In this document: positions 19,326-23,839 of the stretch, piece by piece | Position numbering within the stretch: the stretch's first letter is position 1 | How the letters are laid out: every line of letters begins with the position of its first letter | IMG/VR virus record: IMGVR_UViG_2690316131_000023 | Strand: one strand, 5' to 3' | Source: a virus | Lineage: Duplodnaviria; Heunggongvirae; Uroviricota; Caudoviricetes | DNA: 34,605 nucleotides | The notes under the pieces: generated by a model | Databases searched by the model: none | The model's input: the letters and a program-made list of their open reading frames with translations, nothing else | Told to the model about the DNA's origin: nothing | Position numbers and translations under genes: made by a program

Positions 19326-20881
19326 GCACAAAATTTTATACCCTGCTGACGGATATTGGCGCGGCGAAACTTGCCAGCGCCGCCGCGCTCGGTGTGCCTT
19401 TAAAAATTACCCATATGGCGGTCGGCGATGGCGGCGGAACATTGCCAACGCCGGACGCAAAGCAGACAGCATTAGTAAATGAGAAACGCCGGGCTGCGCT
19501 GAATATGCTTTATATCGACCCGCAGAACAGCAGCCAGATTATTGCTGAACAGGTGATCCCTGAAAACGAGGGCGGTTGGTGGATACGTGAAGTGGGCCTG
19601 TTTGATGAGTCCGGGGCATTGATTGCCGTGGGCAACTGCCCGGAAAGCTATAAGCCGCAACTGGCTGAAGGCAGCGGGCGCACCCAGACCGTGCGCATGG
19701 TGCTGATTACCAGCAGTACGGACAATATCACCCTGAAAATCGACCCTGCTGTAGTGCTGGCAACCCGTAAATACGTGGATGATGAAGTCCTGGAATTAAA
19801 GCTGTATGTGGATGACCAGATGAGAAACCACATTGCCGCACAAGATCCTCATACCCAGTATGCGCAGAAACATAATCCGACATTTACCGGAGAACCAAAA
19901 GCGCCGACGCCTGCAGCAGGAAATAACACCACGCGGATTGCGACCACTGAGTTTGTTCAGGCCGCTATTACTGCTCTGATTAACGGTGCGCCAGCCACGC
20001 TGGACACACTGAAAGAAATTGCCGCAGCCATTAACAATGACCCGAAATTCAGTACCACCATTAACAATGCGCTGGCACTAAAAGCGCCGCTGTCGAGTCC
20101 GGCACTCACCGGAACGCCAACAGCACCTACTGCGGCGCAGTCGGTCAACAATACACAGATTGCCACTACGGCTTTTGTGAAATCGGCGATTGCAGGAATG
20201 GTGGGTTCTGCACCTGCGGCACTGGATACACTGAACGAACTGGCGGCGGCACTGGGGAATGATCCGAACTTTGCCACGACAATGCTTAATGCGCTGGCAG
20301 GTAAACAACCGCTGGACAATACGCTTACCAATTTGAGCGGAAAGGATGTATCTGGTCTTCTCACATACCTTGGTTTGGGAGAAGGTTCGGCATTACCCGT
20401 TGGTGTGCCTGTTCCGTGGCCTTCCGCCACTCCGCCAACAGGCTGGCTGAAATGCAACGGTGCAGCATTTTCTGCTGAAGAATACCCGGAACTGGCAAAG
20501 GCTTACCCGACAAATAAATTGCCTGATTTACGTGGTGAGTTTATTCGTGGCTGGGATGACGGACGTGGTATGGATACGGGGAGGGCAATATTATCAGCTC
20601 AGGGCGATGCCATACGTAATATCTATGGTGAGTTCAGAACTGTAAACACTGAAAATTATTCAATATGGGAAACAGCAGGCTCGTTTAAGGGGGCCATAGT
20701 GCCATTGAGTCCCTCTACAAACAATAGTTATTTCTCCTTAACCAGAAGTATGGTGACAGAAAGAGCAGACGGCGCTGTTTACCCAAAAGTGATTGGCCTT
20801 GATGCTTCAAGAATTGTTCCAACTGCAAACGAAAATCGACCCCGTAACATTGCCTTTAATTATATCGTGAGGGCTGCCTGA
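19322..20881 (+). CDS. H: tail fibre protein H: constant N-terminal region fused across hixL to variable C-terminal tip Hv1 (collar/receptor-binding type)
   Basis: N-terminus matches P2 H (MAVGDGGG..., ESYKP, VDDE); in-frame crossover site at 20358-20383; C-terminal tip begins at GLGEGS. Confidence 0.9.
   Translation: MSTKFYTLLTDIGAAKLASAAALGVPLKITHMAVGDGGGTLPTPDAKQTALVNEKRRAALNMLYIDPQNSSQIIAEQVIPENEGGWWIREVGLFDESGALIAVGNCPESYKPQLAEGSGRTQTVRMVLITSSTDNITLKIDPAVVLATRKYVDDEVLELKLYVDDQMRNHIAAQDPHTQYAQKHNPTFTGEPKAPTPAAGNNTTRIATTEFVQAAITALINGAPATLDTLKEIAAAINNDPKFSTTINNALALKAPLSSPALTGTPTAPTAAQSVNNTQIATTAFVKSAIAGMVGSAPAALDTLNELAAALGNDPNFATTMLNALAGKQPLDNTLTNLSGKDVSGLLTYLGLGEGSALPVGVPVPWPSATPPTGWLKCNGAAFSAEEYPELAKAYPTNKLPDLRGEFIRGWDDGRGMDTGRAILSAQGDAIRNIYGEFRTVNTENYSIWETAGSFKGAIVPLSPSTNNSYFSLTRSMVTERADGAVYPKVIGLDASRIVPTANENRPRNIAFNYIVRAA
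20358..20383 (+). other. hixL/gixL-like invertase crossover site (12-2-12): TTCTCACATACC TT GGTTTGGGAGAA
   Basis: Both half-sites read TTCTC...ACC (compare hixL TTCTTGAAAACC); central TT at 20370-20371 coincides exactly with the start of the long inverted repeat. Confidence 0.6.
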
Positions 20882-21483
20882 TGGAGAAAGCTATATTAAA
20901 TAAGGAACTCATCGCCACAAAGGCGGGAGATATTACCGTTTATAATTATGATGGTGAAACGCGGGAATATATTTCTACATCAACTGAATATCTTGCTGTT
21001 GGCGTCGGTATCCCGGCATGTTCTTGTTTAGATGCGCCAGTTACACATAAAGCTGGTTATGCTATCTGCCGCTCAGCAGATTTTAACTCATGGGAATATG
21101 TGCCAGACCATCGCGGTGAAATTGTCTATAACACCGAAACGGGAGATGCCAAAGAAATCACAGCACCAGGCGACTATCCCGAAAAAACAACCACTCTCGC
21201 ACCGTTAACGCCATACGATAAATGGGATGGTGAGAAATGGGTGACCGATACTGAGGCACAGCATAGCGCCGCAGTAGAAGCGGCAGAAGCACAGCGCCAG
21301 TCGCTGATTGATGCTGCAATGGCTTCTATCAGTCTGATTCAACTGAAATTACAGGCCGGGCGGAAGCTGACGCAGACAGAAAACACCCGACTTAACGCCG
21401 TGCTGGATTACATTGACGCGGTGACGGCAACAGATACCAGCACCGCGCCGGATGTCATCTGGCCTGAACTGCCGGAGGCGTAG
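20881..21483 (+). CDS. tail fibre assembly chaperone (Tfa1, cognate to Hv1)
   Basis: 200 aa directly after H; conserved C-terminal Tfa motif (LDYIDAV...DVIWPELPEA). Confidence 0.85.
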   Translation: MEKAILNKELIATKAGDITVYNYDGETREYISTSTEYLAVGVGIPACSCLDAPVTHKAGYAICRSADFNSWEYVPDHRGEIVYNTETGDAKEITAPGDYPEKTTTLAPLTPYDKWDGEKWVTDTEAQHSAAVEAAEAQRQSLIDAAMASISLIQLKLQAGRKLTQTENTRLNAVLDYIDAVTATDTSTAPDVIWPELPEA

Positions 21484-21904
21484 GCCATTCAATATCTGGA
21501 GCACTGGAGGTATCAACCAGTTCCAGTGCGTCCAGATAATCCAGCCACAAATTATATTGCGCCAGTTCCTCACCTTTCAGACGACCAATAGCCGCTTTAC
21601 CGGGCCATTGTTTACTGTTCATGTATTCGTTGACCTGGTTAATCAATTGCTGCTTTTTCAATTCGGCTGCGGCAATCTGTTCCTCATGTGTTGGTGGTGG
21701 AATATCTGCCCATGATGGCATTCCATCTTCACCAACGCACCTGTATTTTCCTTCTGGTGCTGGTTTAAGTGCAAATTCTTCGAAAACAGAATATTTAACG
21801 GGTTTTGCATCTGCTGGAAAAGAATTAGATTTAATATATTCTTGTTTCAAATGCTCAGGGTAAAATGCATTATTTATAGAGCTGTAGTATATTATGCTCG
21901 ACAT
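21455..21904 (-). CDS. alternative tail fibre assembly chaperone (Tfa2), reverse orientation
   Basis: 149 aa, convergent with Tfa1; C-terminal LWLDYLDAL...DIEWPTPP Tfa motif; identical copy on the plus strand at 22293-22742. Confidence 0.75.
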   Translation of the reverse strand: MSSIIYYSSINNAFYPEHLKQEYIKSNSFPADAKPVKYSVFEEFALKPAPEGKYRCVGEDGMPSWADIPPPTHEEQIAAAELKKQQLINQVNEYMNSKQWPGKAAIGRLKGEELAQYNLWLDYLDALELVDTSSAPDIEWPTPPAVQAR

Positions 21905-21907
21905 TTT

Positions 21908-22292: not shown

Positions 22293-22742
22293 ATGTCGAG
22301 CATAATATACTACAGCTCTATAAATAATGCATTTTACCCTGAGCATTTGAAACAAGAATATATTAAATCTAATTCTTTTCCAGCAGATGCAAAACCCGTT
22401 AAATATTCTGTTTTCGAAGAATTTGCACTTAAACCAGCACCAGAAGGAAAATACAGGTGCGTTGGTGAAGATGGAATGCCATCATGGGCAGATATTCCAC
22501 CACCAACACATGAGGAACAGATTGCCGCAGCCGAATTGAAAAAGCAGCAATTGATTAACCAGGTCAACGAATACATGAACAGTAAACAATGGCCCGGTAA
22601 AGCGGCTATTGGTCGTCTGAAAGGTGAGGAACTGGCGCAATATAATTTGTGGCTGGATTATCTGGACGCACTGGAACTGGTTGATACCTCCAGTGCTCCA
22701 GATATTGAATGGCCTACGCCTCCGGCAGTTCAGGCCAGATGA
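22293..22742 (+). CDS. tail fibre assembly chaperone Tfa2 (second, forward copy; cognate to Hv2)
   Basis: Identical to the 21455-21904 minus-strand protein; start at ATG 22293. Confidence 0.75.
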   Translation: MSSIIYYSSINNAFYPEHLKQEYIKSNSFPADAKPVKYSVFEEFALKPAPEGKYRCVGEDGMPSWADIPPPTHEEQIAAAELKKQQLINQVNEYMNSKQWPGKAAIGRLKGEELAQYNLWLDYLDALELVDTSSAPDIEWPTPPAVQAR

Positions 22743-23316
22743 CATCCGGCGCGGTGCTGGTATCTGTTGCCGTCACCGCGTCAATGTAATCCAGCACGGC
22801 GTTAAGTCGGGTGTTTTCTGTCTGCGTCAGCTTCCGCCCGGCCTGTAATTTCAGTTGAATCAGACTGATAGAAGCCATTGCAGCATCAATCAGCGACTGG
22901 CGCTGTGCTTCTGCCGCTTCTACTGCGGCGCTATGCTGTGCCTCAGTATCGGTCACCCATTTCTCACCATCCCATTTATCGTATGGCGTTAACGGTGCGA
23001 GAGTGGTTGTTTTTTCGGGATAGTCGCCTGGTGCTGTGATTTCTTTGGCATCTCCCGTTTCGGTGTTATAGACAATTTCACCGCGATGGTCTGGCACATA
23101 TTCCCATGAGTTAAAATCTGCTGAGCGGCAGATAGCATAACCAGCTTTATGTGTAACTGGCGCATCTAAACAAGAACATGCCGGGATACCGACGCCAACA
23201 GCAAGATATTCAGTTGATGTAGAAATATATTCCCGCGTTTCACCATCATAATTATAAACGGTAATATCTCCCGCCTTTGTGGCGATGAGTTCCTTATTTA
23301 ATATAGCTTTCTCCAT
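22714..23316 (-). CDS. tail fibre assembly chaperone Tfa1 (second, inverted copy)
   Basis: Translation identical to 20881-21483. Confidence 0.8.
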   Translation of the reverse strand: MEKAILNKELIATKAGDITVYNYDGETREYISTSTEYLAVGVGIPACSCLDAPVTHKAGYAICRSADFNSWEYVPDHRGEIVYNTETGDAKEITAPGDYPEKTTTLAPLTPYDKWDGEKWVTDTEAQHSAAVEAAEAQRQSLIDAAMASISLIQLKLQAGRKLTQTENTRLNAVLDYIDAVTATDTSTAPDVIWPELPEA

Positions 23317-23827
23317 CAGGCAGCCCTCACGATATAATTAAAGGCAATGTTACGGGGTCGATTTTCGTTTGCAGTTGGAACAATTCTTGAAGCATCAAGG
23401 CCAATCACTTTTGGGTAAACAGCGCCGTCTGCTCTTTCTGTCACCATACTTCTGGTTAAGGAGAAATAACTATTGTTTGTAGAGGGACTCAATGGCACTA
23501 TGGCCCCCTTAAACGAGCCTGCTGTTTCCCATATTGAATAATTTTCAGTGTTTACAGTTCTGAACTCACCATAGATATTACGTATGGCATCGCCCTGAGC
23601 TGATAATATTGCCCTCCCCGTATCCATACCACGTCCGTCATCCCAGCCACGAATAAACTCACCACGTAAATCAGGCAATTTATTTGTCGGGTAAGCCTTT
23701 GCCAGTTCCGGGTATTCTTCAGCAGAAAATGCTGCACCGTTGCATTTCAGCCAGCCTGTTGGCGGAGTGGCGGAAGGCCACGGAACAGGCACACCAACGG
23801 GTAATGCCGAACCTTCTCCCAAACCAA
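23316..23827 (-). other. promoterless inverted copy of the Hv1 tail-fibre tip cassette (silent in this orientation)
   Basis: Translation identical to the H C-terminus from GLGEGS onward; ends at the hixR crossover. Confidence 0.6.
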
Positions 23828-23839
23828 CGTTTAAGAAAA
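23814..23839 (-). other. hixR/gixR-like crossover site: TTCTCCCAAACC AA CGTTTAAGAAAA (inverted relative to hixL)
   Basis: Left half identical to the reverse complement of the hixL right half-site; about 55 bp upstream of the invertase gene. Confidence 0.6.

Follow-up and report, generated by a model that had tools for sequence, protein, structure and literature searches.

A palindromic duplication at the tail-fibre locus of a P2-like Escherichia coli prophage is very probably a scaffolding artefact over a conventional invertible segment

Does the tail-fibre locus of this prophage carry an invertible segment with duplicated, palindromic arms, or does the palindrome belong to the assembly and not to the DNA? 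The window analysed here (the whole stretch of 34,605 nucleotides) contains two arms, 20370-21918 and 22279-23827, which are exact reverse complements of 1549 nt each around a 360-nt core (21919-22278), just as the first-pass annotation had described them. A match of this length is far beyond chance. A repeat search gave longer arms of 1561 nt (20358-21918 and 22279-23839). The 12 nt added to each arm are the outer hix half-sites, which pair at just 7 of 12 positions, so that 1549 nt is the exact figure. The annotation had interpreted the locus as an invertible host-range switch of atypical, duplicated architecture. The palindrome exists in the window text alone and in no sequenced molecule: position 21919 is N in the public record.

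The gene beside the segment is predicted to encode a small serine recombinase of the DNA-invertase subfamily. It matches the Mu Gin structure 3UJ3 over residues 1-183 (phmmer, E=6e-91), bearing out the earlier Gin-like assignment, as well as the Hin DNA-binding domain 1HCR, and the motif YVRVSTNDQ carries the Ser. In Hin, Gin and Cin, the invertase gene contains in its 5' part a Fis-dependent recombinational enhancer in cis; one is expected at this locus purely on grounds of homology. An Rfam scan returned nothing in the locus, its sole find being RybB in the host flank.

Two inverted 26-bp sites of the 12-2-12 form with the same central dinucleotide were found, hixL inside gene H and hixR ending 55 bp before the invertase ATG (23895), and their sequences and coordinates agree with the first description. 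TT GGTTTGGGAGAA is common to both, while the outer halves fit a TTxTCxxAAACC-type pattern. They resemble the sites of EC958 prophage Phi2 and the Sandmeier consensus as quoted in the same paper (PMC4134206), and they are kept in relatives (L001-L003; L-numbers are our labels for matching loci), which have only two sites. Because the crossover site lies inside the fibre gene, both orientations give in-frame Hc fusions: the 519-aa H with the Hv1 tip or, when Hc is joined to Hv2 at hixL, a 466-aa H' with a single terminal stop, each with its own chaperone. A protein identical to the 519-aa H carries the Pfam domains Phage_tail_fib and Collar, and L010 and L011 have annotated proteins 100% identical to the rebuilt 466-aa Hc-Hv2. 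The coordinates of these features are collected in Table 1.

Table 1. Features of the tail-fibre locus, in window coordinates
Feature	Position	Strand	Remarks
Gene H, isomer A	19322-20881	+	519 aa; Hc 19322-20369 in frame with Hv1 20370-20881
hixL	20358-20383	+	12-2-12, TTCTCACATACC TT GGTTTGGGAGAA
Extra copy, read as spurious	20370-21918	+	exact reverse complement of 22279-23827; Hv1 tip, Tfa1 20881-21483 (+), Tfa2 21455-21904 (-); tail of a contig or extension on the isomer-A path
Scaffold seam	21919-21919		sole difference from the public record in 12,552 bases
Real invertible segment	21920-23827	+	1,908 bp, isomer-B orientation; central TT of hix to central AA of hixR
Hv2 alternative tip	21920-22272	+	gp53-like C-terminal domain; Pfam Gp53-like_C, E=1.9e-9
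Tfa2, assembly chaperone paired with Hv2	22293-22742	+	ORF; Pfam Caudo_TAP, E=1.5e-35
Tfa1, assembly chaperone paired with Hv1	22714-23316	-	ORF; Pfam Caudo_TAP, E=5.6e-32
Hv1 tip, silent position beside invertase (isomer B)	23316-23827	-	183-aa ORF exits through hixR to 23867
hixR	23814-23839	-	+ strand TTCTCCCAAACC AA CGTTTAAGAAAA; reverse complement TTTTCTTAAACG TT GGTTTGGGAGAA
Gin/Hin-family serine DNA invertase	23895-24461	+	188 aa; Pfam Resolvase and HTH_7

The decisive observation concerns a single base. Over 12,552 bases the window matches the public draft contig CYDD01000029.1 (GCA_001284925.1) at every position but 21919, which is N in the record and A in the window, and which sits exactly at the arm/core junction (...AATCCTTAT-x-TTGGTTTGGGAGAAGCGGCC...). 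The junction that creates the duplication, 21918/21919/21920, is not sequenced DNA, and no called base links the left arm, at its inner end, to the core. A literature search found no paper naming this assembly. The retron RT protein from the same contig is very common (631 index blocks).

The two sides of the N belong to different orientations. To its left runs the isomer-A path, Hc-hix-Hv1-Tfa1-Tfa2. It does not continue through Hv2 but breaks off at 21918, a point 15 nt upstream of where Tfa2 translation starts. To its right, from the hix central TT, stands the complete isomer-B segment, Hv2-Tfa2-Tfa1-Hv1-hix-gin. The scaffold thereby holds, in called bases, both the isomer-A junction of Hc to Hv1 (20369/20370) and the isomer-B junction of Hv1 to the gin side (23827/23828). 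As both isomer-specific junctions occur in one scaffold, the reads came from a mixture, and both orientations were apparently present in the sequenced culture.

Removing 20370-21919 from the window leaves a conventional two-site segment of 1,908 bp, collinear with L011 and L013, whose inverted form is collinear with L006 and L007. Rebuilt isomer A aligned with L006 and L007 in one piece (13,560 nt, 99.9%), and rebuilt isomer B did so with L011 (12,552 nt, 99.87%). The segment 21920-23827 is also collinear with L014. The removal of the extra 1,550 bp thus restores the classical Hv1-Tfa1 / Tfa2-Hv2 mirror layout found in every other assembly examined, and the duplicated architecture comes down to a one-N scaffold seam. 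The invertible switch itself holds up, both isomers being found in independent assemblies with identical proteins: isomer A in L006-L009 and isomer B in L010 and L011. The same IS1 insertion is present in L009 and L010, with the segment in opposite orientations. The exact 183-aa Hv1 ORF occurs on 10 contigs; among the matches listed, L010 and L011 are conventional isomer B, L013 is isomer B until its contig ends at hix, while L012 is the source record itself. What the DNA actually contains is a host-range switch of the classical, already known Mu-G/P1-C/e14-P type in a P2-like E. coli prophage.

The duplicated form was found in no other genome searched. A 25-mer across the seam had no exact match in genome_contigs, viral_contigs or metagenome_contigs, and in 5,426 complete E. 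coli genomes no match runs across the seam. The region 19900-24500 was covered to at least 80% in one place by 0 of these 5,426 genomes and 0 of 50,697 phage records; its best relatives span about 3.0 kb, compared with 4.6 kb in the window.

Assemblies of related prophages break where the two orientations meet. In a mixed population, the contexts of isomers A and B run together at the hix TT, a place where contigs naturally end. The assembly of Z1323HEC0475 (99.5-99.9% identity, insertion at the same ybjL site) is cut at 20369, 21935-23812 and 23828. Its chromosome record stops at 20369, directly before the hixL central TT; a 42-kb record starts at 23828, directly after the hixR central AA; and a 1,878-bp record (L004, window 21935-23812) corresponds to the segment 21920-23827 without the 15-nt inverted repeat at each end. 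The independent draft contig L013 ends exactly at 21920, making two other assemblies in which a near-identical prophage is interrupted precisely at these hix positions.

We conclude with high confidence that scaffolding or gap filling created the palindrome as an artefact on top of a genuine, conventional segment. By analogy with Gin and Hin, the invertase is expected to cleave each site at its central TT/AA and to rotate and rejoin the ends, and each flip would fuse Hc to Hv1 (H, Collar-domain tip) or Hv2 (H', gp53-like tip), with the matching chaperone next to it. In a culture that held both orientations, one assembled sequence would have left Hc on the isomer-A path and halted at 21918, and a second would have begun at the hix central TT and run across the full isomer-B segment and into the invertase gene. 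The two would then have been joined by a scaffolder, plausibly one guided by isomer-B read pairs linking Hc to Hv2, with a single N left for want of an overlap. The catalytic mechanism, drawn from homology to Gin/Hin, is an inference, as are the joining software and the reason for the stop at 21918; the N, the collinearity of both rebuilt isomers, the natural occurrence of both and the breaks of other assemblies at the same sites are shown. SSPACE and GapFiller are greedy tools with which false joins are possible and N gaps remain (PMC5320598), and GapFiller extends contig ends into gaps, closing them only upon overlap (PMC3446322). A plain de Bruijn walk through a mixed A/B population, which we also considered, can make no new junction without read support, and this is why the N, as a scaffolder's join, matters. 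The mixed-orientation assembly artefact that the first-pass annotation had itself named as the outcome telling against its reading is what emerged, from the N seam and the conventional relatives.

In principle, the N might mark not a gap but one base that was called ambiguously within a sequenced junction. The duplication would then be real in the isolate, Hv1-Tfa1-Tfa2 having been copied in inverted orientation into hixL, with the N hiding one or a few junction bases; we consider this quite unlikely. Such a copy might have arisen by inter-sister invertase cleavage at hixL and hixR followed by illegitimate joining, or through a template switch during replication that used the inverted repeat TTGGTTTGGGAGAAG of 15 nt. 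The extra copy does begin, on its left, exactly at the hix crossover dinucleotide, and the rest of the contig is clean, differing from its relatives by nothing but substitutions. A truly duplicated arm would also fork in the assembly graph at 21918/22279, so the inner boundary alone would fit a real duplication too. However, the junction base is N. K-mers across a real and unique junction would have extended the right contig leftwards into the arm, and the contigs would overlap and merge; instead, the right piece starts exactly at the TT, as expected if Hv2 has two upstream contexts, those of isomers A and B. The arrangement is seen in no other assembly, although the exact 519-aa H protein occurs in 124 index blocks, among whose listed matches every neighbourhood is conventional.

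Nor does a clean recombination product fit a real duplication. In site-specific recombination between hix and a quasi-site, the conventional partner would be ATAATCCTTATG GA AGCTCAATATCC, a poor half-site with a different central dinucleotide; base 21919 matches neither parent because it is N in the source record. Joining by microhomology or template switching was rejected as well, as only CCTT is common near the junction and a different product would result. A real duplication would mean a switch locked on Hv1 with Hv2 stranded, yielding the same fibre in either orientation. The earlier argument that hixL x hixR inversion regenerates the same H is sound for the palindrome as written, but the palindrome itself is unsupported by the data.

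The first-pass annotation had also noted that Hv2 would need two steps or an internal site to reach H. One conceivable reading is a three-site system of multiple inversion, like Min of plasmid p15B or a shufflon, in which a functional middle TT GGTTTGGGAGAAG at 21920 would bring Hv2 to Hc in two steps. The inner half of hixL and its central TT do recur as a 15-nt direct repeat at 21920-21934 (repeat family D8), but this is the normal inner end of the segment as in isomer B. At 21908-21919 (ATAATCCTTATA), the remaining half of such a putative site has no likeness to a hix half-site and ends in the N, which effectively refutes this reading already. With only two complete sites here, as in the relatives, multi-site recombination is neither needed nor supported, and we regard it as extremely improbable. 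The superficial likeness to Min and shufflons lies in the presence of more than two hix-like sequences and several fibre cassettes; here the third sequence is the inner end of the segment seen twice.

A chimeric or fold-back read, from a missed hairpin adapter or an MDA-type inverted chimera, is just as hard to credit in place of scaffolding from a mixed population. Such artefacts yield palindromic contigs, and the EC958 authors screened for them (PMC4134206). Their turn points would be arbitrary, however, with no oriented 360-nt spacer expected, whereas both outer ends here coincide with hix crossover points and the N seam is typical of scaffolding.

The segment closely follows Mu G/Gin, P1 C/Cin and e14 P/Pin, with which it shares a serine invertase, here very close to Gin, encoded just outside the segment and two inverted 26-bp 12-2-12 sites, one of them inside the fibre gene, with inversion swapping the fibre C-terminus and Tfa chaperone. 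In contrast to these systems, the tips here are of the Collar-domain and gp53-like types. The host phage is P2/186-like (Peduoviridae) and not Mu or P1, and at 1.9 kb the segment is shorter than Mu G, which is about 3 kb.

The nearest parallel is EC958 prophage Phi2, which shows the same mirror layout in an invertible tail-fibre segment of 2,067 bp and nearly the same crossover sequences, TCCTCAATTACC TT GGTTTAGGAGAA and GAGAGATAAACG TT GGTTTGGGGGAA (PMC4134206). There, switching was frequent, with inversion at about 50% in a culture; it upset the assembly and yielded spurious alternative contigs, and the authors warned of 'artefactual duplications in phage regions' (PMC4134206). The alternative allele of EC958 stayed a separate contig, whereas here it was stitched into the chromosome scaffold, producing the palindrome.

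The duplicated palindrome is very probably not a real feature, and its main lesson is one of caution. Active inversion produces mixed-orientation read sets, which can give rise to false palindromic duplications in scaffolds, as here. A second type of error comprises phantom 'plasmids', of which the 1,878-bp and 42-kb Z1323HEC0475 records are examples, and a third consists of contig breaks at hix sites. Replacing N by a nucleotide makes such seams look like real junctions, and single-N seams need to be masked or flagged before a sequence is read. The biological importance of the locus is small: the prophage is a common P2/186-like one of E. coli, and its tail-fibre inversion is a textbook case of the Gin type.

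The inverted repeat described in the first-pass annotation is present in the window: two arms of 1549 nt, at 20370-21918 and 22279-23827, are perfectly reverse-complementary and enclose a core of 360 nt (21919-22278). A repeat finder gives arms of 1561 nt; the 12 added bases of each arm, of which just 7 agree, make up the outer half of a hix-type crossover site. The hix-like sites previously noted in the tail-fibre gene H and shortly before a Gin-like invertase gene were both located. The 12 bases preceding a partial third copy, ATAATCCTTATA, are unlike any hix half-site. Residues 1-183 of the invertase match the Mu Gin structure 3UJ3 (E=6e-91), and the protein also matches the Hin DNA-binding domain; judged by sequence similarity, it is a close Gin homologue, and a Fis enhancer is expected within its gene.

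Features of the prophage, in window coordinates (Hv, alternative fibre tips; Tfa, their paired chaperones)
Feature	Position	Strand	Remarks
Reverse transcriptase, 646 aa	5136-7076	+	Low-GC island, GC 0.32-0.39
FRG-domain protein, 311 aa	15877-16812	-	Pfam E=2e-19; PADLOC candidate PDC-S15, E=8.5e-32
H, 519 aa	19322-20881	+	Phage_tail_fib + Collar
hixL	20358-20383		TTCTCACATACC TT GGTTTGGGAGAA; within gene H
Tfa1	20881-21483	+	
Tfa2	21455-21904	-	
Partial third hix copy	21920-21934		TT GGTTTGGGAGAAG only; repeat family D8
Hv2	21920-22272	+	gp53-like C-terminal domain
Tfa2, copy 2	22293-22742	+	
Tfa1, copy 2	22714-23316	-	
Hv1, copy 2	23316-23827	-	
hixR	23814-23839		Reverse complement TTTTCTTAAACG TT GGTTTGGGAGAA; ends 55 bp upstream of invertase ATG (23895)
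Invertase	23895-24461	+	
Tail sheath, then tail tube	from 24604	+	

The element is a P2/186-like prophage whose insertion adjoins ybjL in E. coli; its right-hand end inside the window is marked by the RybB sRNA (Rfam RF00110, 105 bits; 31828-31906, minus strand) in the host flank by ybjL. Two genes of the prophage lie in low-GC islands. The reverse transcriptase, whose gene is flanked by the replication gene (1855-4269) and the portal gene, was assigned to RT-Toprim_I-C by PADLOC (retron type I-C, E=2e-217) and to RVT_1 by Pfam. Its exact 646-aa sequence recurs in 631 index blocks and is common among P2/186-like prophages; an Rfam scan at the gathering threshold retrieved no msr/msd RNA for it. 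The FRG-domain protein is encoded in an island separating tail gene S from baseplate gene V; relatives have a DUF2971 protein or nothing at this place, which resembles a variable hotspot for cargo or defence genes.

Among 5,426 complete E. coli genomes and 50,697 phage records, no entry contained at least 80% of 19900-24500 at a single location. The closest of these relatives cover about 3.0 kb, versus 4.6 kb in the window, and are annotated with the classical layout H, Tfa1 and, facing them, Tfa2 and Hv2, followed by the recombinase, with only two hix sites. We reconstructed this layout by deleting window positions 20370-21919 and placing the leftover 1,908-bp segment in either orientation, joining the constant part of H (Hc) to Hv1 (isomer A) or to Hv2 (isomer B). 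Isomer A aligned in one piece with two assemblies (L006 and L007; 13,560 nt, 99.9%), as did isomer B with another (L011; 12,552 nt, 99.87%). L010 and L011 have annotated proteins that match the rebuilt 466-aa Hc-Hv2 fusion at 100% identity. H itself, as an exact 519-aa match, occurs in 124 index blocks, and all neighbourhoods among those listed are conventional. The exact 183-aa ORF corresponding to Hv1 beside the invertase was found on 10 contigs; its four listed places are L010 and L011 (conventional isomer B), the window's source record (L012) and a draft contig (L013) that follows isomer B until it ends at the hix site. From the neighbourhoods of these two proteins, therefore, both orientations occur in nature, in separate assemblies, and the proposed invertible host-range switch is real; the underlying switch is already known. 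One IS1 insertion in the Tfa1 region is present in both L009 (7722-8419; GCA_040813095.1), which is isomer A, and L010 (6714-7411; GCA_040813075.1), which is isomer B. Inversion therefore went on after the IS1 insertion.

The palindrome needs only one new adjacency, which at 21918-21920 reads ...AATCCTTAT, A, TTGGTTTGGGAGAAGCGGCC...; relatives continue from the left side of this junction as ...CCTTAT GGAAGCTCA... into the Hv2 end. Base 21919 agrees with neither possible parent, and neither a clean invertase product nor a microhomology join could be constructed at the junction from the parental sequences. A 25-mer spanning it had no exact match in species-representative genomes, IMG/VR or JGI metagenomes. 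In the 12 E. coli genomes with both halves, these are separate, the matches ending at 21918 and beginning at 21920. The source record, found through the 183-aa ORF, is the 60,144-bp contig CYDD01000029.1 of NCBI assembly GCA_001284925.1. Its gene order is duplicated as in the window, and it is identical to window positions 17316-29867 at 12,551 of 12,552 positions. It contains exactly one N, at window position 21919; the deposited sequence therefore does not determine the base joining the left arm to the core, and the A of the window is evidently a stand-in.

A scaffolder that links two contigs without finding an overlap leaves just such a mark: a single N, here exactly at the sole novel adjacency. 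SSPACE puts in a single n when the predicted gap is negative and no overlap is found, and GapFiller retains at least one N in gaps left unclosed. Greedy scaffolding and gap-filling tools such as these can make false joins and insert N gaps (PMC5320598); GapFiller extends contig ends into gaps and closes them only on overlap (PMC3446322). The palindrome is thus very probably an assembly artefact, and the atypical duplicated architecture claimed for it, whose sole new adjacency carries an N in the deposited source, was not upheld as a real feature.

That the seam falls at the central TT would follow from a mixed culture, in which Hv2 is preceded by Hc in isomer B and by the gin side in isomer A, two contexts that meet exactly there, making the TT a natural contig start. 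The independent draft contig L013 terminates at window-equivalent 21920, which fits such a start, as do the record boundaries in strain Z1323HEC0475 and the short Hv2 contigs described below. The called bases of the window scaffold contain both the isomer-A-specific junction from Hc to Hv1 and the isomer-B-specific junction from Hv1 to the gin side, so the reads behind it were drawn from a mixture. Isomer-B read pairs linking Hc to Hv2 would set the right-hand contig after the left-hand one, and a strongly negative gap estimate from such pairs would give a single N. A duplication truly present in the source isolate would likewise fork at 21918, so the end of the left piece there does not discriminate alone. 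However, an assembler would have extended the right-hand contig across a genuine unique junction, enabling an overlap merge, whereas that contig begins at the TT; we regard a real duplication as very improbable, and all other readings together as more improbable still.

Misassembly at invertible tail-fibre segments is seen elsewhere. A culture of E. coli EC958 with about 50% inversion gave spurious contigs, and the authors caution on 'artefactual duplications in phage regions'; the crossover sites of the EC958 prophage Phi2 are nearly identical to those in the window (Forde et al., PMC4134206). E. coli Z1323HEC0475 carries a prophage 99.5-99.9% identical at the same insertion site, and its chromosome record stops at 20369, the hixL crossover point. 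Two 'plasmids' of its RefSeq 'complete genome' (GCF_037543765.1) are pieces of the assembly: NZ_CP148330.1, circular and 1,878 bp long, is the invertible tail-fibre segment (window 21935-23812), and the 42,418-bp NZ_CP148327.1 is the downstream chromosome from 23828 (invertase, tail genes, ybjL ... cspD). In 17 index blocks the Hv2 ORF is on a contig of less than 2 kb, which fits frequent separate assembly of the segment. On a further draft contig (GCA_042959565.1, 1-3300), the early-region gene CP76 is the direct neighbour of a group made up of an invertase gene, two Tfa genes and part of a Collar tip; deletion, rearrangement or a further misassembly at the invertible segment could account for this.

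The structure of the switch is shown here; its mechanism we infer from homology to Gin and Hin. Invertase dimers at hixL and hixR would cleave the central dinucleotide with a 2-nt stagger, and rotation and religation would flip the 1,908 bp. Orientation A would express Hc-Hv1 (Collar tip) with Tfa1, and orientation B Hc-Hv2 (gp53-like tip) with Tfa2. Hv2, Tfa2, Tfa1 and the Collar tip also occur, at 99.8% nucleotide identity, in a Mu-like prophage (GCA_008104105.1, 5996-7908) with Gp45/46/48-type baseplate genes and its own 187-aa invertase beside the cassettes. The homology begins exactly at the hix central TT, which points to cassettes having been exchanged between Mu-like and P2-like phages at crossover sites. 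For reading such loci, the lesson is methodological: N seams turned into bases can mimic novel junctions.
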